Part shown: one piece after another, positions 2,594 through 47,607 of the stretch
Numbering within the stretch: position 1 is the first letter of the stretch
Layout of the letters: each line of letters starts with the position of its first letter
NCBI GenBank assembly: GCA_934086955.1
Contig: CAKOIN010000002.1
Span: forward strand, 73,401 to 137,400
Reading direction: 5' to 3'
DNA: 64,000 nt
Origin: an uncultured Bacilli bacterium
Lineage (GTDB): Bacteria > Bacillota_I > Bacilli_A > RF39 > UBA660
Translations under genes and position numbers: made by a program
Notes under the pieces: model-generated
Seen by the model: the letters and a program-made list of their open reading frames with translations, nothing else
Told to the model about the DNA's origin: nothing
The model's database searches: none

Positions 2594-3043
2594 ATGTTAT
2601 ATGAAACCATATCAAATGATATGAAAGAAGCTATGAAAGCTCATGATAAAGAAACATTAAATACAATAAGATTGTTAAAGTCTGCTATTGATTTATATTT
2701 AGTAAACAATAAGCTAGAAAGAAATACTTGTAGTGATGAAATAGTTATAGATATAGTAAGCAAACAAGTTAAGACTCATAAAGAAAGTATAGAAGAATTT
2801 AAAAAAGGTAATAGACAAGATTTAGTAGATAATCTTCTAAGAGAGATAGATTTACTAAGTAAATATTTACCAAAACAATTAACAGAAGAAGAAATAACTG
2901 CTGAAATTGATAAAGTATTTGATAAAATCAAACCTACTAGTATGAAAGATATGGGATTAATTATGAAAGAATTAACACCAATATTTAGAGGTAAAGCAGA
3001 TATGAAAACTGTTAATGAAATAGTTCGTTCTAAATTAAACTAA
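2594..3043 (+). CDS. yqeY: GatB/YqeY domain protein
   Basis: 149 aa with a YqeY-like sequence (LKSAIDL..., LSKYLPKQLTEEEI). It follows rpsU, as in other Firmicutes. Confidence 0.8.
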   Translation: MLYETISNDMKEAMKAHDKETLNTIRLLKSAIDLYLVNNKLERNTCSDEIVIDIVSKQVKTHKESIEEFKKGNRQDLVDNLLREIDLLSKYLPKQLTEEEITAEIDKVFDKIKPTSMKDMGLIMKELTPIFRGKADMKTVNEIVRSKLN

Positions 3044-32898: not shown

Positions 32899-33357
32899 AT
32901 GAATAAAAATGGATTTACATTAATGGAACTCTTAGTAGTTATATCAATTTTAGTTATAACAAGTGTATCAGCAACACTTGTATTTGATACAGCAACATCA
33001 AGTACAGAAAAAGAAGATACAAGAAGATTATATGTTAATATTCAAAAAACAGGAGAAGTATATTTAGATTTAAATGATTCATGGATGAACTCATTTAATG
33101 AAAAAGGAGAAGTATATTTAAAAGTAAGTGAACTTGAAAATGCAAACTATTATAACTCTACCTACGAGGGAATTAAAACAAACAAAAAGATATCTGGAAA
33201 CTATTTTGTAAAAGTATTTGTAAATAAAAAATCTAATTTATCATATGTAGATACTTGCTTAATTTCTTATGATAAATCAAATCAGACACACTGTATCGCA
33301 GATAGAAATGGAAACTCTGATAATTGTGACTATAACACAAAATGTGTAGCATTCTAA
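32899..33357 (+). CDS. prepilin-type N-terminal cleavage/methylation domain protein (pilin/pseudopilin)
   Basis: N-terminal MNKNGFTLMELLVVISILVI. Confidence 0.7.
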   Translation: MNKNGFTLMELLVVISILVITSVSATLVFDTATSSTEKEDTRRLYVNIQKTGEVYLDLNDSWMNSFNEKGEVYLKVSELENANYYNSTYEGIKTNKKISGNYFVKVFVNKKSNLSYVDTCLISYDKSNQTHCIADRNGNSDNCDYNTKCVAF

Positions 33358-37228: not shown

Positions 37229-38572
37229 GTGAATGATAAAGAATTTATAAAAATTAGAAATCAAATAGCAAATAAACTTTATGCTTTAGTTGCAAATGAG
37301 TATAATGAGTGTTTATCATTTTCAAATAAAGCAAAAACTAATAAATCACTTACATCAATAGCTAAAATGAAAAATGAAAATTATAGTTTAATGACAAATT
37401 ACTATAATCAAATAAGACAATGCAAATCAAGAACAGAATTAAATACTATTAGAGCAAAAATAGTCGCAAAAGTAGCAGAAATTAGACAAGCATATAAAGA
37501 ACTAGCAACAAAAAAAGCAACATCACAAAATAAAGATTTAATAACTGAACAAATGGAAGCTTTAAGATTAGCTAACTTATTTATGTATAACTTTGTTAAT
37601 GAAATGGATGCTCCGTTTAAACAACAAACGGAAGAAAAAAGAGAAACAGTAACTCACATAAATACACCAATACCAACAGTTAAAAAACAAGAAAGAACTG
37701 TAACTCCTACAGAAAGAAAACCAGAAATAAAACAACAAACACCTAAGACATATCAAACAGATCCAAATCTATATAGAGACAATGATATAAAAAATATAGA
37801 AATAATTAATAGAGCAATATGTCAACTTAAAGAAAAATATTATAGTTTAAATCAATACAGTGTAGAAGCAAAAGAATTAAGAAAAAAGATATATGCATAT
37901 TCTGTTAGAAGAGAAGAAGGTATAAGAAGAATCTGCGGTAATGAAGGCATTAAATTATTATTAAATGTTGAAAGTATAGAAGATAGCATTTATTCAAAAC
38001 CATTATTAGTTACGAGAAAGCCATATAGAATATCAACATCAAGTTATATGGCAAGATTAAATGGATTAATATCTGCAATAAGCGATTTGAAATGTAAAGG
38101 ATATGATAGTAAATACTATAAAGGTCCAAAAGGCGATTATAAAGTATTTAATAAATTATTAGATGCATCAATCGCGGAATATCATAATATGATTATGGCC
38201 GTTGCTGATGTTAGTCAAAAACCTGGAATAATTAAAACATCAAATGATATACTATCACTATTAAATATATATAATATAGATGGAGATTATACAAAATTTA
38301 AAGATATTAATAATGGTGGAATGGTTGGTGGAGAAAGAATATCAATCGAAGCCTATAGAGAAGGTGTTAACAGAATAAATGGAATGATTGATACAATTAG
38401 ACAGCAATCCTCTCTAGCAATAAAATCAAACGGAGGAGCAATCACAGTTAAAGATCGTTCTAATGCTAGAAGTGAAGACGAAAAGCATCTTCAAATAGCA
38501 AAAGAAGAATTATATAGAAAATATTTAGCAAGCAAAAAAGAAATGTTAAGTCAAGGAACTATAAGAAAATAA
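37229..38572 (+). CDS. hypothetical soluble protein (447 aa) upstream of the sigma paralog cluster
   Basis: GTG start behind GGAGA. No TM helix and no recognisable domain. A central T/P/K/Q-rich linker is present. Confidence 0.5.
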   Translation: MNDKEFIKIRNQIANKLYALVANEYNECLSFSNKAKTNKSLTSIAKMKNENYSLMTNYYNQIRQCKSRTELNTIRAKIVAKVAEIRQAYKELATKKATSQNKDLITEQMEALRLANLFMYNFVNEMDAPFKQQTEEKRETVTHINTPIPTVKKQERTVTPTERKPEIKQQTPKTYQTDPNLYRDNDIKNIEIINRAICQLKEKYYSLNQYSVEAKELRKKIYAYSVRREEGIRRICGNEGIKLLLNVESIEDSIYSKPLLVTRKPYRISTSSYMARLNGLISAISDLKCKGYDSKYYKGPKGDYKVFNKLLDASIAEYHNMIMAVADVSQKPGIIKTSNDILSLLNIYNIDGDYTKFKDINNGGMVGGERISIEAYREGVNRINGMIDTIRQQSSLAIKSNGGAITVKDRSNARSEDEKHLQIAKEELYRKYLASKKEMLSQGTIRK

Positions 38573-38593
38573 AGCAACTAAGGTTGCTTTTTA
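38572..38593 (+). terminator. intrinsic terminator
   Basis: Stem AGCAAC/GTTGCT followed by a T-run. Confidence 0.6.
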
Positions 38594-38610: not shown

Positions 38611-38639
38611 TTGCATTTTTGATACAAATATGTTACAAT
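38611..38639 (+). promoter_or_regulatory. promoter of sigma paralogs 1-2
   Basis: TTGCAT-17-TACAAT with an upstream TG. It is nearly identical to 41150-41178. Confidence 0.6.
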
Positions 38640-38664
38640 ATACGGACATTTGGGGGAAAAGAAT

Positions 38665-39867
38665 ATGAAAAAAGAAATAAACGATTTTATAATGCAAAAT
38701 TTTATTGATGGACCAACAGCAGAACAATTAAAAAATTGTAAGAAATTAATTGAATTTTTAAATTCTAAAAAATATACATTAAATTTTAAAACTACTCAAG
38801 AACTTTTATTAGAAAATATGCAATTAAATAAATTAGCTGCAATTTTAAATGAACTTATTGAAAAAGGCGATATTGATTTAGTTAATAATGAAAATGTTAG
38901 TATGATTGTATCTGCATATTATTTAATGAATAATAAAGAAGAAACAGAACAAGAAGAAAAAGATGATGATTTTGATTATACAAAGTTTGATGTAAGTGAT
39001 GTTGATAATGTTAAATTATATTTAAGAGAAATAGGAACAATCAAATTATTAACTGCTGATGAAGAAATAGAATTAGGAAAAAAAATATCAATGGGAGACG
39101 AAGAAGCTAAAAAGAAATTAGCTGAAAGTAATTTAAGATTAGTAGTTTCTATTGCAAAAAGATATAATGGATCATCAGGTTCTTTAACTATACTTGATTT
39201 AATACAAGAAGGTAATATTGGATTAATGAAAGCAGTTGAAAGATATGATTATAGTTTAGGTTTTAGATTTAGTACTTATGCTACTTGGTGGATTAAACAA
39301 GGAATTTCAAGAGCAATATCAGATCAATCAAGAACAATAAGAATCCCATCTCATTTATATGAACAAGTTAGAAAGATGGATGTTGTTATCTCTAGATATG
39401 TAGGTAATTATGGTGTAGAACCAACTGATCAAATGTTAGCAGATATGTTTGATGTGTCAGTTGAAACAATAAGAGAAAGAAAAGTAATAATGCAAGATAC
39501 ATTATCTTTATCTCAACCTATTAGAACAAATGATACAGAAGATAGTGAAGAATTAGGAGCATTCATAAAAGATCCTAATGTTAATGATGAAGATTTTACA
39601 GATGAAGTATATTATAAAGATTTTTTAGCAGCTGTATTCGAAAGAGGTCCTTTAACAGAAAGAGAAAAAGAAATTATAAAATATAGATATGGACTTGGAC
39701 CTGATGGAAGAAGATACACACTAGAAGAAGTAGGGAAAATATTTGGAATAACTAGAGAAAGAATTAGACAAATAGAAGGAAAAGCTCTTAGAAAACTAAA
39801 AAAAAGTAGAGAAGTAAGAAGTTATTGTCCAGAATCAAAAAAATTACAATTAGTAAACTATAGATAA
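38665..39867 (+). CDS. SigA/RpoD-like sigma-70 factor, paralog 1
   Basis: Regions 1.2 to 4.2 are present: [55 protein letters not shown] and [27 protein letters not shown]. The start was moved to ATG 38665. Confidence 0.85.
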
Positions 39868-39899
39868 AAACATTTTAATATAATAAAAGGGGAAAAAAT

Positions 39900-41111
39900 A
39901 TGGAGCAAGAAATAATAAGATTTATAATAGCTAATTTTCAAGAAGGAAATATAGTAGTACAATTAAAGAATTGCAAAAGATTAGTTTCATTCTTAAAAAA
40001 GAAAAAGTATGAATTAGATATTGATTCAGCCACTAATTTATTATATGAAAGTGAAGAACTAAATAAAATGGCAATGATAATTAGTCAAATGAATAGTGAT
40101 GAACTAGAAAATGAAGAGAATATTTCAATAATCATGTCAGCTTATAAATTAATAAATAGAAAAAATGATAAAATAACTAAAAAAGATACAACTCAAAAAA
40201 CAAATTCTTATGAAACAGTAAACATTAGTGCATTCGATAATATGGATTTATATTTAAAAGATCTTGCTGAAATAGCTGAAATAAATAGATTAACACATGA
40301 AGAAGAAATAAAATTAGGGAAAAAGGTACTTAGCGGAGATTTGGATGCTAAACAAAAATTAATTGAATCAAACTTACCTGTAGTGATTTATGTAGCGAAA
40401 AAATATGCAAAGAATGCAGGATCTCTATCAATGTTAGATTTAATACAAGAGGGAAATATAGGCTTAATGCAAGCTGTTGAAAGCTATGACTATAGAGTTG
40501 GAGCAAGATTTATTACTCATGCAGTATGGTGGATTAGACAAGCCATAACAAGAGGAATTGCAGACAAATCTAGAATGGTTAGATTACCTGTATATTTATT
40601 TGAAGATGTTAAAAGAATAAACAAATTAATAAGAGATTACCAAGAACAATACGGATTTGAACCAACTGATGAAACAATTTCAGATATATTATTTATTCCA
40701 GTAGAAAAAGTAAGAAGATTAAAAGTAGAAATGCAAGAACCCTTATCATTTTCACAACCTCTATCAAAAAGTAGAAATAATATAGAAAGTAATGGAGAAC
40801 TTGGAGAATTTGTAGCTGATTCAAACTCAGAAATATATAATTTTGAAAACGAATCATTTTATAATAGTTTTAATTCTGTAATATTTAACTCAGATATATT
40901 AACAGAAAGAGAAAAATATATTATTAAACATAGATTTGGTTTTGAAGGTGAAAAGCACGAAACATTAGAAGATATAGGTAAAACATTAGGTTTAACAAGA
41001 GAAAGAGTTAGACAACTAGAAAAAGGTGCATTAAAAATATTAAGAAATAGTGAAGAAATTAAATGCTTTAATCAAGATAGAGAACAACAATTAATATTTA
41101 GACATAATTAA
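39900..41111 (+). CDS. SigA/RpoD-like sigma-70 factor, paralog 2 (most divergent)
   Basis: Same architecture as paralog 1, with NLPVVIYVAKKY, FITHAVWWIRQ, RMVRLPVY and TLEDIGKTLGLTRERVRQLEKGALKIL. It begins 32 nt after paralog 1. Confidence 0.8.
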   Translation: MEQEIIRFIIANFQEGNIVVQLKNCKRLVSFLKKKKYELDIDSATNLLYESEELNKMAMIISQMNSDELENEENISIIMSAYKLINRKNDKITKKDTTQKTNSYETVNISAFDNMDLYLKDLAEIAEINRLTHEEEIKLGKKVLSGDLDAKQKLIESNLPVVIYVAKKYAKNAGSLSMLDLIQEGNIGLMQAVESYDYRVGARFITHAVWWIRQAITRGIADKSRMVRLPVYLFEDVKRINKLIRDYQEQYGFEPTDETISDILFIPVEKVRRLKVEMQEPLSFSQPLSKSRNNIESNGELGEFVADSNSEIYNFENESFYNSFNSVIFNSDILTEREKYIIKHRFGFEGEKHETLEDIGKTLGLTRERVRQLEKGALKILRNSEEIKCFNQDREQQLIFRHN

Positions 41112-41135
41112 AAAGCGATATTATCGCTTTTTATC
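41112..41135 (+). terminator. intrinsic terminator
   Basis: Stem AAGCGAT/ATCGCTT followed by a T-run. Confidence 0.65.
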
Positions 41136-41149
41136 TTTTTAAAATCTAG

Positions 41150-41239
41150 TTGCATATTTGATACAGATGTGCTATAATATGTAACTACTCAGTGAGGGGA
41201 ATAAAAAAACTTGTGTTTTAAGTGAAAATATGCTATAAT
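41150..41239 (+). promoter_or_regulatory. two tandem promoters of sigma paralog 3
   Basis: P1 is TTGCAT-17-TATAAT (41150-41178). P2 is TTGTGT-17-TATAAT (41211-41239). The TGCTATAATATG element is duplicated. Confidence 0.5.
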
Positions 41240-41263
41240 ATGCAGGAATTTAGGGGTGAAAAT

Positions 41264-42478
41264 ATGAAAAAGGAAATATTAGAATTTATAAAAAATAATT
41301 TTGTAAGTGGTAGTCAATCAGTACAATTAAAAAACTGGAGAAATTTAGTTTCGTTTTTAGGTGGTAAAAAATATAAATTAGATTCTAAACTAGCAACAGC
41401 TTTATTAAATGAAAGTCCTGAATTATATGAAATGACAGCTGCTTTAAATGAATTAAATGAAAAAGGTGATATTGAATCATTTAATAATGATAATATTGCA
41501 GTATTAATCTCATCATATTATTTAATGAATAATACTGAAGAAGAAATAGAAAATCCAAAAGAAGAAAAAAATGTAAAAGAAGAGTTTGAACCACAAGATA
41601 TTAGTACTATTGATAATGTAAAATTATATTTAAGAGAATTAGATAGTAAATTGTTAACAAAAGAAGAAGAATGTGAACTTGGAAAAAGAGTATCTGAAGG
41701 TGATGAAAAAGCAAAAGAAGAGTTAGTTGCTTCAAATTTAAGGTTAGTAGTTTCAATTGCTAAAAAATATACTACTATATCTGACACATTATCATTTGAA
41801 GATTTAATTCAAGAAGGAAATATTGGACTTATGAAAGCTGCTGATAAGTTTGATTATACATTAGGATATAAATTCAGTACATATGCTACTTGGTGGATTA
41901 GACAAGCTATAACAAGAGGAATAGCTGATCAATCAAGAACAATAAGAATACCAGTTCATTTACATGATAATTTAAGAAAAATGAATGTAGCAATAACTAA
42001 CTATATGTCAGAGTATGGTGAAGAACCTAGCGATAAATATTTAGCTGATTTATTAGGCATAACAGAAGAAGCAGTTAGAGAAAGAAAACTGGCCGCTCAA
42101 GGAGTTGTTTCATTATCACAGCCAGTAAGAAATGAAGGAGAAGAAGACGGAGACGAATTAGAAAGCTTTATCGAAGACCCAACATATAGTGATAATCTTG
42201 TTGCAGATGTCTTATATTTAAGAGATTTCAAATCAGCAGTATTTGATAAATCACCATTAACAGAAAGAGAAAAAATGGTATTAAAATGTAGATTTGGAAT
42301 TGATATGCCAAGGAGATATACATTAGAAGAAATAGGGAAAATGATGGGTGTAACAAGAGAAAGAGTTAGACAAATAGAAGCAAAAGCAATAAGAAGATTA
42401 AGAACAAACAGAGAAATCAAATCATTTAATCCTGAAAATGATGAACCTGGAATAAAATTAATAAGAAGACATAAGTAA
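41264..42478 (+). CDS. SigA/RpoD-like sigma-70 factor, paralog 3 (most canonical)
   Basis: Motifs [41 protein letters not shown] and [27 protein letters not shown]. The start was moved to ATG 41264. Confidence 0.85.
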
Positions 42479-42479
42479 A

Positions 42480-42505
42480 ATGAGCTAGAAATAGTTCATT
42501 TTTAT
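42480..42505 (+). terminator. intrinsic terminator
   Basis: Stem ATGAGCTA/TAGTTCAT with a GAAA loop, followed by a T-run. Confidence 0.65.
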
Positions 42506-42553
42506 TTGAATATTTAATTGTATTTTATATATAATTTTGTTAAAATATTTCTT

Positions 42554-44696: not shown

Positions 44697-46529
44697 ATGG
44701 CTAAGGAAAAAGAAAAAAAAGTCAAACCTAAGAAAAAAGATACAAAGAAAAAAGATACTATTAAAAAAGATACTACTAAAAAACCAAGAATAAATCCAAT
44801 AAAATTTATTATAAATGAAATAATAGTTTTAATTAAATCAGTTGGCATGGGAGTATTTGGTTTTTTCGATCTTATTGTATCATTCATTGTTTCATTTGTT
44901 TCATATACATACTGGGGAATAAGAAATATAATAGTATTCTTCTGGAAACTATGTTTTAAAGGTGTGTTTGGTGAATTATATGCAATGCTTTTTTCATGTT
45001 ATAGTGGTTTTATATTCATATTTTCAACAATATTTGTTGACCTTCCTATGTTTTTATATGATAAATGTAGTAAAGTAGTATATAAATATTATAAGAAATA
45101 TAAAGACTATCAAGAGGCTCAAAAAGCTAAAAAAGCATTAGAGGCTGAAAAAGCACTTGGAAGTAAATCACTTACAAAAACATTAGCTGATTACATAACA
45201 GAAAAATACGAAAACTTATCATTTGTAAAAGAAGCAAGAGCTAAAAAAGAAGCAAGTTTAGTAGTATTAACATTAGACCCAAATGGTGCTGATGCAGTAA
45301 AATCTGCTACAAAACAAACATATAGGTATCTAGTTAGAGGAAAAGATGGAAAACTTCTAAAAGGTTATTTCCCAGCTTTTTCAAAAATGGATGTATACTC
45401 TTATTTAACAGATGAAGGATATACAGTCTATGAAATAGTAACAAATTGGTCAATCAATTTCTTACATGCTGATGCAACTGCATTTAAACAAAAAATGAAA
45501 ATAAAAGATCTAGTATTCTGGCTTACTCAATTATCAACTTACATTAGAGCAGGTATTGCATTAACTGATGCAGTTAAGATACTAGCAAAACAAGATAAAA
45601 GAAAAAAATATAAACCTGTTTATGAGTCACTTATATATGAACTTACAATGGGTGAAAGTTTTAGTGAATCATTAAGAAAACAAGGAAATGTGTTTCCAGC
45701 ATTACTTGTTAATATGATTAAATCATCAGAACTTATTGGTAATATAGAAGATACATTAGATGAAATGGCTGATTACTATCAAGAGGTTGAAGATACAAAG
45801 AGAGCAGTAATAAGTGCAATGGCATATCCATGTGTCGTATTACTATTTGCTATAGGTATAGTTATATTTATGCTTACATACATAGTACCTAAATTCGTTG
45901 GTATTTATGAATCAATGAATGCTGAATTAAATATAGTTACTGTAATTACTCTACAAATATCAGCTTTCTTAAGAACACAATATGTCCCATTAATACTTGG
46001 AATTGTTGGATTTGCAGTACTTTATACAGTTCTATATATCAAAGTAAAAGCATTTAGAACATTTATGCAAACAATATTTATGAAATTACCAGTAGTTGGA
46101 AATATTCTTACATATAAAGAAATGTCACTATTTGCAAGAACATTTGCAACATTACAAAAGAACAATGTATTATTAACTGATAGTATTGATATACTAGCAA
46201 AAATAACAAATAATGAAATATATAAATCAATAATGAATCACACAATTAATAACTTAATTAAAGGTGAAAAAATGAGTGAATCATTTAAAGATAACTGGGC
46301 AATACCAGATGTAGCATATTACATGATTTTAACTGGTGAATCAACTGGTGAACTTGCAAATATGTTAGAAAAAATAGGCGACTATTATCAAAAATTAGAA
46401 AAGAATAGTGTTAATATGATTAAGACATTTATAGAACCAGTATTAATAGTATTCTTAGCAGTAGTTGTAGGATTTATTCTAATCGCTGTAGTTGTACCAA
46501 TGTTCGGAATTTATTCAACAATAAGCTAG
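44697..46529 (+). CDS. type II secretion/type IV pilus platform protein (GspF/PilC family) with a ~200-aa N-terminal extension
   Basis: Two GspF-type domains (FWLTQLSTYIRAGIAL...; FARTFATLQKNNVLL...). They are preceded by a K-rich tail and extra TM segments. Confidence 0.8.
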   Translation: MAKEKEKKVKPKKKDTKKKDTIKKDTTKKPRINPIKFIINEIIVLIKSVGMGVFGFFDLIVSFIVSFVSYTYWGIRNIIVFFWKLCFKGVFGELYAMLFSCYSGFIFIFSTIFVDLPMFLYDKCSKVVYKYYKKYKDYQEAQKAKKALEAEKALGSKSLTKTLADYITEKYENLSFVKEARAKKEASLVVLTLDPNGADAVKSATKQTYRYLVRGKDGKLLKGYFPAFSKMDVYSYLTDEGYTVYEIVTNWSINFLHADATAFKQKMKIKDLVFWLTQLSTYIRAGIALTDAVKILAKQDKRKKYKPVYESLIYELTMGESFSESLRKQGNVFPALLVNMIKSSELIGNIEDTLDEMADYYQEVEDTKRAVISAMAYPCVVLLFAIGIVIFMLTYIVPKFVGIYESMNAELNIVTVITLQISAFLRTQYVPLILGIVGFAVLYTVLYIKVKAFRTFMQTIFMKLPVVGNILTYKEMSLFARTFATLQKNNVLLTDSIDILAKITNNEIYKSIMNHTINNLIKGEKMSESFKDNWAIPDVAYYMILTGESTGELANMLEKIGDYYQKLEKNSVNMIKTFIEPVLIVFLAVVVGFILIAVVVPMFGIYSTIS

Positions 46530-46542
46530 TTGGGGTGAAGGT

Positions 46543-47304
46543 ATGGAAATATTTACAATGATTTATGTTACAATAGTAGGAGCAATAATGGGTAGCTTTT
46601 TAGGATGTATGGGCTATAGAATACCAAACAAAATAAAAACTACCTATCCAAGTAGCTTCTGTAATGACTGTGGAAAACCACTAAAATGGTATATGAATAT
46701 ACCAATAATATCTTACATAGCTCTTGGTGGTAAATGTGCATATTGTAAGAAACCAATAAATTTTATTTATCCATTTGTTGAAATAGCATGTGCATTATTA
46801 TTCTTATGTAACTATGTAACATTTAGCTTTACAATGAATTTCTTTATAAGTACAATACTTACTTGTGCATTAATGGTAACAATAGTAAGTGACTTCTTAT
46901 ATTTCTATATATCAGATAGAGTACTTGTACTTTCAGGAATTGGTATTGTAATAACATTATTATGTTTTGAAAGTACTGATATTGTATTTAAACATATAAT
47001 AGCAAGTGCTATCATATTTATATTAATGTATTTAATAAAACTACTTGGAAATGTATTATTTAAAAAAGAATCACTTGGTGATGGTGATATAAAATTAATG
47101 GGAATTGTAGGATTATCAATAGGAATTATGAATAGTATTGTTTCATTATTTATAGCTTCAGTAACAGGACTTATATTTTCATTAATAGTAAGTAAAAAGA
47201 ACAAAGAAGGAATAATTCCTTTTGGACCATTTCTTCTTATAGGAGCACTTATAACACTATATTTTAGTGATATAATAACACCGTTCTTACAAGCATATTT
47301 ATAA
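46543..47304 (+). CDS. prepilin peptidase (A24 family)
   Basis: N-terminal Cys pairs (CNDCGK...CAYCKK), polytopic TM helices and the GDGDIKLMG motif. Confidence 0.85.
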   Translation: MEIFTMIYVTIVGAIMGSFLGCMGYRIPNKIKTTYPSSFCNDCGKPLKWYMNIPIISYIALGGKCAYCKKPINFIYPFVEIACALLFLCNYVTFSFTMNFFISTILTCALMVTIVSDFLYFYISDRVLVLSGIGIVITLLCFESTDIVFKHIIASAIIFILMYLIKLLGNVLFKKESLGDGDIKLMGIVGLSIGIMNSIVSLFIASVTGLIFSLIVSKKNKEGIIPFGPFLLIGALITLYFSDIITPFLQAYL

Positions 47305-47326
47305 GCACTAGAAATAGTGCTTTTTA
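47304..47326 (+). terminator. intrinsic terminator
   Basis: Stem AGCACTA/TAGTGCT with a GAAA loop, followed by a T-run. Confidence 0.7.
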
Positions 47327-47365
47327 ATTGAATAAAAATATTAAGTTTTTACAATAAAAATTAGT

Positions 47366-47394
47366 CTTTACAATAAAAAAACATAGTGTTATAA
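47366..47394 (+). promoter_or_regulatory. promoter of the ileS leader
   Basis: TTTACA-17-TATAAT with an extended -10 TG. Confidence 0.6.
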
Positions 47395-47403
47395 TGTATG
47401 TAT

Positions 47404-47607
47404 TCAAAACAAGGGATGAAGACGATATATAATTAAAGTTGATAGAGAGCTAGTGTTTGGTGAAAACTAGTAACAATATTATATATGGATCACTTCTGAT
47501 GTTATCTATGGATAAGATAGATACGCATAATTGCGTTAAAATAATAAAGTAAATAAAGGGATGGTACCGTCTATTTTAGACTCCTTGTACTATCTCTTTT
47601 TTATTTA
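47404..47607 (+). promoter_or_regulatory. T-box riboswitch leader, isoleucine specifier (ATC)
   Basis: GA motif GGGATGA...CTGATG. AG bulge AGAGAG and distal loop GGTGAAA. ATC at 47488-47490 is followed by A. T-box AGGGATGGTACCGTC. An 11-bp terminator (AGGGATGGTAC/GTACTATCTCT) is followed by T6. Confidence 0.85.

Follow-up and report, generated by a model that had tools for sequence, protein, structure and literature searches.

What are three consecutive genes for proteins resembling RpoD/SigA, the primary sigma factor, doing side by side in one Bacilli genome, and is any of them the housekeeping sigma factor of its host? The genes lie in a 64-kb stretch of DNA from an uncultured Bacilli bacterium (contig CAKOIN010000002.1, positions 73,401 to 137,400), hereafter the window, and we name them s1, s2, and s3. 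The initial annotation, made from the letters of the window, proposed one housekeeping sigma factor plus two specialized copies. Our analysis does not bear this out and points to s1–s3 as accessory, RpoD-derived, group 2–like sigma factors of an uncharacterized subfamily, present beside an ordinary sigma factor encoded in a dnaG-rpoD-trmK cluster; we assign this reading a probability of roughly 0.8. The three genes are co-directional and are located as follows, in window coordinates.

38665..39867, plus strand: s1, a probable accessory RpoD-like sigma factor of 400 residues, with an N-terminal domain (N-domain; residues 1–92), an acidic linker, regions 1.2–4.2, and a basic noncanonical tail

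39900..41111, plus strand: s2, a deviant paralog of 403 residues with its own ribosome-binding site (RBS) and with changes at residues for core binding and melting and in region 3.0

41264..42478, plus strand: s3, a probable accessory RpoD-like sigma factor of 404 residues whose DNA-recognition residues are the most canonical of the three

The open reading frames (ORFs) and Pfam agree on the basic architecture reported initially, with Sigma70_r1_2, r2, r3, and r4 present in all three proteins and region 1.1 in none. The primary-sigma motifs that were quoted initially can also be read in the translations. Regions 1.2, 2, 3, and 4 are collinear with those of Bacillus subtilis SigA (PDB 7CKQ, chain F) and about 50 to 55% identical to them, and the pairwise identity among s1, s2, and s3 (46–54%) is about equal to the identity of each to SigA. 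Their best PDB and NCBIfam matches are primary sigma factors, the best NCBIfam models being RpoD at 239 to 333 bits, whereas models for SigE/K/F/G, SigB, and the extracytoplasmic function (ECF) types give 83 to 116 bits, far short of the RpoD scores and also of the cut-offs that apply to these models. The assignment as SigA/RpoD-like rather than as one of these other types is therefore sound. None of the three reaches the RpoD equivalog cut-offs of NF006666 and NF004208 (572 and 555 bits), with scores of 329 and 320 for s1, 239 and 251 for s2, and 305 and 333 for s3, whereas a SigK encoded elsewhere in the window exceeds the cut-off of its subfamily. The PGAP label of the orthologues is “sigma-70 family,” not RpoD.

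A comparison of recognition residues, suggested in the initial annotation, separates the three proteins from one another. The consensus of the larger family that shares the N-domain (see below) is that of canonical Firmicute RpoD/SigA at the melting/−10, extended −10, and −35 motifs, including region 3.0 (RTIRIPVH) and region 4.2. At these residues s3 is canonical and s1 nearly canonical, whereas s2 is altered; the core-binding helix is intact in s1 and s3. The deviations first noticed in s2 (NLPVVIYV, FITHAVWW, and RMVRLPVY) are real and are kept in the s2 orthologue of a sister species; they amount to R-L-to-P-V in region 2.1, Y-to-H and T-to-V in region 2.3, and H-to-Y in region 3.0. What distinguishes s1 and s3 from RpoD is the N-domain, a PVHLHE sequence in region 3.0, and loss of the canonical C-terminal “HPSRS..L.DFL,” in place of which the subfamily has an N-R-E-I-K/R-x-F-x-P tail. 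This tail after region 4.2 is common to all three proteins, and its basic character, attributed at first to all of them, holds for s1 (+5) and s3 (+2), with s2 neutral; likewise, an acidic linker is a feature of s1 (−9) and s3 (−8), that of s2 being neutral.

The shared N-domain of ≈92 residues aligns cleanly among s1, s2, and s3 and with homologues, and it is not region 1.1 (σ1.1). PF03979, the Pfam model of σ1.1, gives no match to 16 N-domains even at E ≤ 10, and hhalign, given the N-domain and a σ1.1 profile built from this lineage, returns a probability of 1.3%. A confident AlphaFold2 model of the domain contains five helices (predicted local distance difference test [pLDDT] 88, predicted template modeling score 0.79), and a Foldseek search of this model finds nothing significant in the PDB (best E 0.57, template modeling score [TM] ≤0.41), nor does a viral fold library give a significant match. 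The same procedure succeeds with a positive control, for which the genuine σ1.1 of the lineage was modeled: this model, an α+β fold, retrieves B. subtilis SigA (TM 0.78; 9A58, 5MWW, and 2K6X are among the hits), superimposes on the isolated B. subtilis σ1.1 domain 5MWW with a TM of 0.75 and a root-mean-square deviation of 1.4 Å, and also finds Thermotoga maritima σ1.1 and Escherichia coli σ70. The N-domain is near neutral in charge (−1 to −3), whereas canonical σ1.1 with its linker is strongly acidic.

The domain had also been described as private to the triplet, and this part of the claim does not stand. When 1.84 billion representatives are searched with an N-domain profile, 95 clusters (at the 50% identity level) match at E ≤ 1e-3, nearly all of them of 390 to 430 residues with the domain at the extreme N terminus, and all those inspected are RpoD-like sigma factors. 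The family is monophyletic on the core regions alone (200 of 200 neighbor-joining [NJ] bootstraps), and it lies at a mean distance of 0.84 from B. subtilis SigA, compared with 0.31 for canonical RpoDs; it evolves ≈2.7 times faster. Close homologues of s1–s3 come from gut metagenomes and from metagenome-assembled genomes that NCBI labels Tenericutes or Mycoplasmatota bacterium. We found no description of this family and no Pfam or NCBIfam model of the N-domain. The N-domain is thus neither σ1.1 nor confined to the triplet.

A separate protein touches on how far such domains extend. P0093 (L201:5651–6880) is a 409-residue sigma factor with a canonical RpoD core, a “RHPSRSKKLKDY” tail, and no Pfam σ1.1, whose N terminus is weakly N-domain–like (E 8e-6 in a 485-protein set). 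Its gene is directly upstream of and overlaps trmK, the housekeeping rpoD position, with no dnaG upstream. P0093 may be a primary sigma factor in which σ1.1 has been replaced.

If s1–s3 are accessory, an ordinary primary sigma factor should be encoded elsewhere, and the initial annotation had named a dnaG-linked sigA as the thing to look for. It had also stated that the triplet is not next to dnaG, and this is so: dnaG was not found in the window, in which all ORFs of at least 120 residues were scanned except a 149-residue ORF at 2594–3043, which is too short to be dnaG. Using a scan of JGI with the lineage-specific σ1.1, followed by exact and contig look-ups, we found the canonical RpoD of this lineage, a 363-residue protein with σ1.1 and the standard “RKLRHPSRAKKLKDFLIE” tail that is present in many contigs, with a core almost invariant across the lineage's species; its identity to the RpoD of “Clostridium sp. 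CAG:524” is 97%, and it is related to that of CAG:1000. The version from the sister species (P0371, 363 residues, PF03979; MCI7083136.1) shares an NCBI accession block with the s3 and s1 orthologues (MCI7083954.1 and MCI7083956.1, respectively). Its gene is part of an era-recO-hrcA-grpE-dnaK-dnaJ-dnaG-rpoD-trmK cluster at 196,715 to 217,806 of the 571,527-bp scaffold ERZ28616524:scaffold_3, and the sister-species triplet lies on that same scaffold at 501,347 to 508,549, ≈300 kb away. In another sample, the contigs with RpoD and with the triplet have equal coverage, 7.9× and 7.5×.

These data bear directly on the possibility that one member of the triplet (s3 being the likeliest) is the housekeeping sigma factor moved away from dnaG, with the other two specialized. 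The canonical recognition residues of s3, its top PDB and NCBIfam matches to primary sigma factors, and a window without dnaG would all fit such a move. However, the canonical dnaG-rpoD-trmK cluster and the triplet occur together on one scaffold of the sister species; the RpoD core is nearly invariant, whereas s3 is only 88% identical between species in which LepA is 98% identical; and s3 lacks σ1.1 and scores far under the RpoD equivalog cut-offs. We regard this alternative as very improbable and already largely refuted, and none of s1–s3 is the housekeeping sigma factor.

Rates of evolution are consistent with an accessory role. The sister species has the same gene order as the window (SpoIVA…UvrA-MscS-p447-s1-s2-s3-LepA-PilC, where p447 is a 447-residue ORF), and its proteins are 98.8% (UvrA), 98.3% (LepA), and 96.6% (MscS) identical to those in the window, compared with 82.8% for s1, 76.1% for s2, and 87.8% for s3. 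The ratio of nonsynonymous to synonymous divergence (dN/dS) is 0.02 for UvrA and LepA and ≈10-fold higher for the sigma genes (0.19 for s1, 0.18 for s2, and 0.23 for s3), with dS broadly similar (0.29–0.53 for s1, s3, and the neighbors; 0.81 for s2). Because dN/dS is ≈0.2 against 0.02 at similar dS, the sigma genes are under purifying selection relaxed about 10-fold and were not imported from a distant donor. The N-domain itself is under purifying selection (dN/dS 0.18–0.24).

Several points weigh against reading s1–s3 as accessory group 2–like proteins of a distinct subfamily. Three redundant housekeeping copies dividing one task among them would likewise show an elevated dN/dS. The presence of a canonical RpoD in the window's own species is an extrapolation from a relative whose housekeeping proteins are 98 to 99% identical. 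The core regions score 240 to 246 bits with primary sigma factors but 190 with Mycobacterium tuberculosis SigB and 165 with RpoS, and are thus closer to primary sigma factors than to these proteins. Finally, long-branch attraction could inflate the monophyly of the N-domain family in NJ trees.

How, then, are s1–s3 to be classed? Group 2 sigma factors are close to group 1, lack σ1.1, are nonessential, and often occur in several copies (PMC4598750). With RpoD/SigA, s1–s3 share regions 1.2–4.2, with canonical recognition residues to the extent given above; unlike RpoD/SigA, they have the five-helix N-domain for σ1.1, lack the HPSRS tail and the linkage to dnaG and trmK, fall below the equivalog cut-offs, evolve faster and without the very strong conservation of group 1, and, in the sister species, coexist with a true RpoD. 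Like the group 2 proteins SigB–E of cyanobacteria, HrdA/C/D of Streptomyces, SigB of M. tuberculosis, and RpoS of E. coli, they are close to group 1 over regions 1.2–4.2, lack σ1.1, have group 1–like promoter residues, and, as far as the sister species shows, occur in multiple copies beside a primary sigma factor. Across relatives, the copy number varies from one to three, with s2 truncated, frameshifted, or replaced. They differ from known group 2 proteins in an independent origin within reduced-genome Bacilli and in having a structured replacement for σ1.1 rather than its simple absence; “group 2” as used here refers to architecture and inferred dispensability, not to orthology.

The closest parallel in a spore-forming Firmicute is Clostridioides difficile 630, in which sigA1 beside dnaG is annotated for exponential growth and sigA2 (CD1498) as “stationary phase,” group 1, with a SigH-dependent promoter (PMC7438776). 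The statement in the initial annotation that such paralogs had not been described for spore-forming low-GC bacteria is accordingly not supported: extra SigA paralogs in spore formers were already known, and the new elements here are the uncharacterized N-domain subfamily and its tandem expansion. Compared by annotation only, SigA2 resembles s1–s3 as an extra SigA-like sigma factor and differs from this tandem array in being a single copy. The promoters also appear to differ, that of sigA2 being of SigH type and those of s1 and s3 reading as σA-type extended −10 promoters; no SigH-like element was noticed in the latter by eye, and no SigH model was run.

The signals around the three genes, all on the plus strand, are as follows.

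38571..38590, plus strand: intrinsic-terminator hairpin at the end of p447, from a terminator scan and reading of the sequence; it would isolate the s1 transcription unit

38611..38639, plus strand: s1-s2 promoter of σA type, TTGCAT, 17 nucleotides (nt), and TACAAT with a TG extended −10

41109..41133, plus strand: intrinsic-terminator hairpin 3′ of s2, from the terminator scan

41150..41178, plus strand: s3 promoter P1, TTGCAT, 17 nt, and TATAAT with TG, the same as the s1 promoter at 25 of 29 bases

41211..41239, plus strand: second promoter-like element 5′ of s3, TTGTGT, 17 nt, and TGcTATAAT, identified by eye only

42481..42508, plus strand: putative terminator after s3, a weak hairpin with a T-run seen by eye and not reported by the scan, which needs three G–C pairs

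The gap between s1 and s2 is 32 nt, with an RBS, and since it holds no terminator, the two genes are probably co-transcribed as an operon, as first proposed. The near identity of the s1 and s3 promoters likewise withstands scrutiny. Across the 64 kb, the 29-nt element TTGCATnTTTGATACAnATnTGnTAnAAT (TTGCAT-17 nt-TGnTAnAAT) has exactly two matches, at the two positions listed, with 0.00 occurrences expected from 100 shuffles, and the terminator scan of the window gives four sites against 0.6 expected. A generic σ70 promoter scan of this 25% GC DNA is uninformative, with 40 sites found and 40 expected. Both the sister species and L199, a third close relative, conserve the s1 promoter 5′ of s1, and in L199 the stretch holding the second promoter-like element is also conserved 5′ of the s3 orthologue. 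A more distant species with a single copy (L106) retains of this promoter only TTGCAA, the 17-nt spacing, and TGcTATAAT. We considered the identical spacer as an operator site and rejected this candidate; because L106 keeps only the −35, TG, and −10 elements, we take the element to be a σA-type extended −10 promoter, and the identity of the spacer appears to reflect recent duplication.

The relatives give an outline of how the locus was built. In L106 (LepA 92% and PilC 69% identical), a single N-domain sigma factor (P0076) is encoded between ppa and lepA-pilC-pilD…ileS, the position of s3. L199 (LepA 98.7%) has three genes, with s1 and s3 orthologues at 88 and 92% identity, respectively; across the sister species and L199, s1 orthologues are 83 to 88% and s3 orthologues 88 to 92% identical, and both genes are intact in every relative examined. 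The middle slot behaves differently. In the sister species, s2 is a 311-residue protein without the N-domain, and in one strain (L197/L198), it is frameshifted by a 1-nt deletion. In L199, the middle gene (P0065) matches s2 at only 41% identity; it comes with a terminator and a promoter copy of its own and is changed at Q/T of region 2.4 and R of region 4.2. An NJ tree of the core regions recovers the s1, s2, and s3 orthologue groups in 200 of 200 bootstraps each. These patterns support an origin of s1–s3 by tandem duplication that copied the promoter, with s2 as a deviant copy. Read from sequence comparison, the ancestral state is a single copy 5′ of lepA, from which duplication gave two copies that are stably kept and a middle slot that is not.

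This history raises the alternative that the genes are redundant duplicates drifting to loss without distinct function, which would account for a sigma dN/dS ≈10 times that of the neighbors and for the truncated, frameshifted, or replaced s2. Loss of expression or pseudogenization of two of the three in relatives had been named initially as an observation that would speak against specialization, and decay is found for s2 and not for s1 or s3. A dN/dS of ≈0.2 is still purifying, N-domain included; s1 and s3 are intact throughout, and the more distant species keeps its single copy; and both the ≈95 clusters of the family at 50% identity and the conserved promoter argue against mere decay. For the triplet as a whole, we consider such drift improbable; for s2 alone, it is plausible, if the less favored outcome.

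Import by a phage or other mobile element would be another source of extra sigma genes, and phrog_351, a phage sigma factor family, does match the cores of s1–s3. This match covers the generic sigma core, however, and the same chromosomal synteny in four species, a GC content like that of the rest of the window (≈25%), the lack of integrase or phage genes nearby, and the absence of the N-domain in searches of phage (50,697) and plasmid (72,556) records leave this explanation with next to no probability.

A role in conflict with phages is a further alternative, in which the extra sigma factors are decoys or backups against phage anti-sigma proteins that target σA, and in which rapid evolution and turnover would follow from that role. 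The fast evolution of s1–s3 and the turnover of the middle slot between near-identical genomes fit, and a σ70 protein, MzaA (NF041931/PDLC02203), belongs to a known anti-phage system, MZA, and its sigma-like C-terminal part gives the best PADLOC match. The RpoD-like C-terminal half of MzaA aligns with regions 2–4 of s1–s3, but its profile is matched only from position ≈340–470 to ≈710, s1–s3 lack its N-terminal region of ≈440 residues, and the scores (217–292 bits with NCBIfam, 143–192 with PADLOC) are those of a generic sigma core against a cut-off of 800. With no Mza partner genes near (the neighbors are UvrA, MscS, p447, LepA, and PilC), membership of s1–s3 in the MzaA family was rejected. 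As dN/dS is <1 in every segment tested and the N-domain is not found in the phage or plasmid records searched, we judge a decoy function improbable.

Returning to s1–s3 as accessory sigma factors, we can sketch how they might work; what we say of binding to core, of the promoters used, of competition with RpoD, and of the role of the N-domain is prediction. In the subfamily, a near-neutral five-helix domain of ≈90 residues, followed by an acidic linker, takes the place of σ1.1. Each transcription unit would be read from its σA-type extended −10 promoter by the RpoD holoenzyme and possibly by s1–s3 themselves. Because their recognition residues are canonical or nearly so, s1 and s3 are predicted to bind core RNA polymerase and to use ordinary −35, TG, and −10 promoters, including their own, in competition with RpoD, and the resulting holoenzymes might differ in initiation behavior or regulation through the new N-domain and tail. 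The N-domain, the PVHLHE sequence, and the lost HPSRS tail are the parts likeliest to affect autoinhibition, the kinetics of open complexes, or the binding of partners. Since melting and recognition residues are changed in s2 and in the middle gene of L199, the activity of both is probably altered or weakened, and they may have a different specificity or be on the way to loss.

A bolder possibility, which we hold to be doubtful, is that the subfamily constitutes a lineage-wide second “primary-like” transcription system in reduced-genome, spore-forming gut Bacilli (RF39-like organisms and relatives), in which the N-domain and tail substitute for σ1.1 or dock a regulator and through which RNA polymerase gains a housekeeping-like mode of its own, for instance in stationary phase, in the forespore, or during germination. 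On this view, the rpoD position of some relatives may even be occupied by an N-domain–like sigma factor, with P0093 in L201 as the candidate. Accessory primary-like sigma factors are a known means of redistributing RNA polymerase in cyanobacteria, actinobacteria, and proteobacteria, but in Firmicutes they have received little study. The subfamily defined by this locus is RpoD-derived, monophyletic, and fast evolving, with a five-helix domain unrelated to σ1.1 and without a Pfam or PDB match, and is found in abundant uncultured gut Bacilli whose sporulation regulation is predicted to be unusual. Were the N-domain to alter initiation kinetics or recruit a regulator, it would represent a new solution to the role of σ1.1.

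Other features of the window characterize the host. A SpoIVA gene (window:30591–32066, plus strand; E 3e-97) and the uninterrupted SigK gene noted above (window:51273–51974, minus strand; 303 bits) are accompanied by genes for FtsW/SpoVE, MraY, DivIVA, and SepF, by type IV pilus or competence genes, and by housekeeping genes; judged from this gene content, the host is walled and probably spore forming. The sources of the s1–s3 homologues and the affinities of the lineage's RpoD suggest that it belongs to one of the orders RF39, RFN20, and ML615J-28, which comprise uncultured, fast-evolving Bacilli with reduced genomes. Sporulation with unusual regulation has been predicted for uncultured, fast-evolving, reduced-genome Bacilli (RF39 and RFN20) in a paper that mentions no SigA paralogs (PMC10868615).

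Directly upstream of the triplet, p447 (window:37229–38572, plus strand) is kept in the three closest relatives and is 91% identical to its sister-species orthologue, with a dN/dS of 0.10; it has no match in Pfam, NCBIfam, PADLOC, PHROG, or the PDB. It is absent from the single-copy locus of L106, and we do not count it as part of the sigma system. On the other side, PilC (44697–46529) and a prepilin peptidase (46543–47304) are encoded just 3′ of lepA, and two further proteins (window:16984–18801 and 32899–33357, both plus strand) have an N-terminal prepilin methylation motif, one of them fused to four DUF285 (“Mycoplasma”) repeats. Two MucBP-domain surface proteins (window:23622–27148, minus strand) are encoded where GC skew is inverted (−0.32), as it is nowhere else in the window, and a 1296-residue ORF 3′ of obg (window:57384–61274, plus strand) has no NCBIfam match at E ≤ 1e-8. 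An Rfam scan of the 64 kb reported no T-box or other family at gathering score, including the regions 5′ of ileS (47305–47560) and of the glycyl-tRNA synthetase gene (upstream of 14533), and a tRNA scan found no tRNA genes in the window.

Public metagenome catalogues contain many chimeric “RpoD” proteins, on short contigs and joined at the conserved region 2 blocks, some between paralogs of one genome and some between organisms (proteins P0037, P0038, P0067, P0069, P0082, and P0083; loci L104, L105, L110, L115, L120, L125, and L135). Within the sister genome, exact shared stretches reach 32 nt between rpoD and s3 and 29 nt between s1 and s3, which suffices for k-mer assemblies to mis-join sigma genes. 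Two of the chimeras, P0038 and P0069, combine a canonical N terminus with s1/s3 C termini and were considered as a fourth sigA in the same genome; they were dropped as cross-organism assembly chimeras because their N terminus is that of P0340, from another abundant organism whose MraY and holA products are 61 and 24% identical, respectively, to those of the window. A genome-collection scan with P0069 as probe gave, among the matches listed, only sigAs of ≤61% identity from other taxa. Such catalogue entries can mislead annotation.

Two observations concern canonical rpoD genes in other organisms. On a 250-kb long-read contig from another gut Bacilli species (L005), an in-frame TAA lies in the conserved “ADQ” codon of rpoD (L005:10580–10600) as a single C-to-T difference; L007 has CA- there, and two short contigs stop exactly at this codon. 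A search with the full-length L005 RpoD gave, among the matches listed, proteins of 93 to 100% identity, and the intact version is present on at least 1000 contigs; the TAA is probably a sequencing error or a rare strain variant, together with repeat-induced contig breaks. In some strains of the P0340 organism (L095:3972–5249 and L103:4052–5329), a reverse-transcriptase (RVT_1) gene and two ORFs of no known kind form an insertion in the hemN–mscS interval, a few kb 5′ of dnaG-rpoD.

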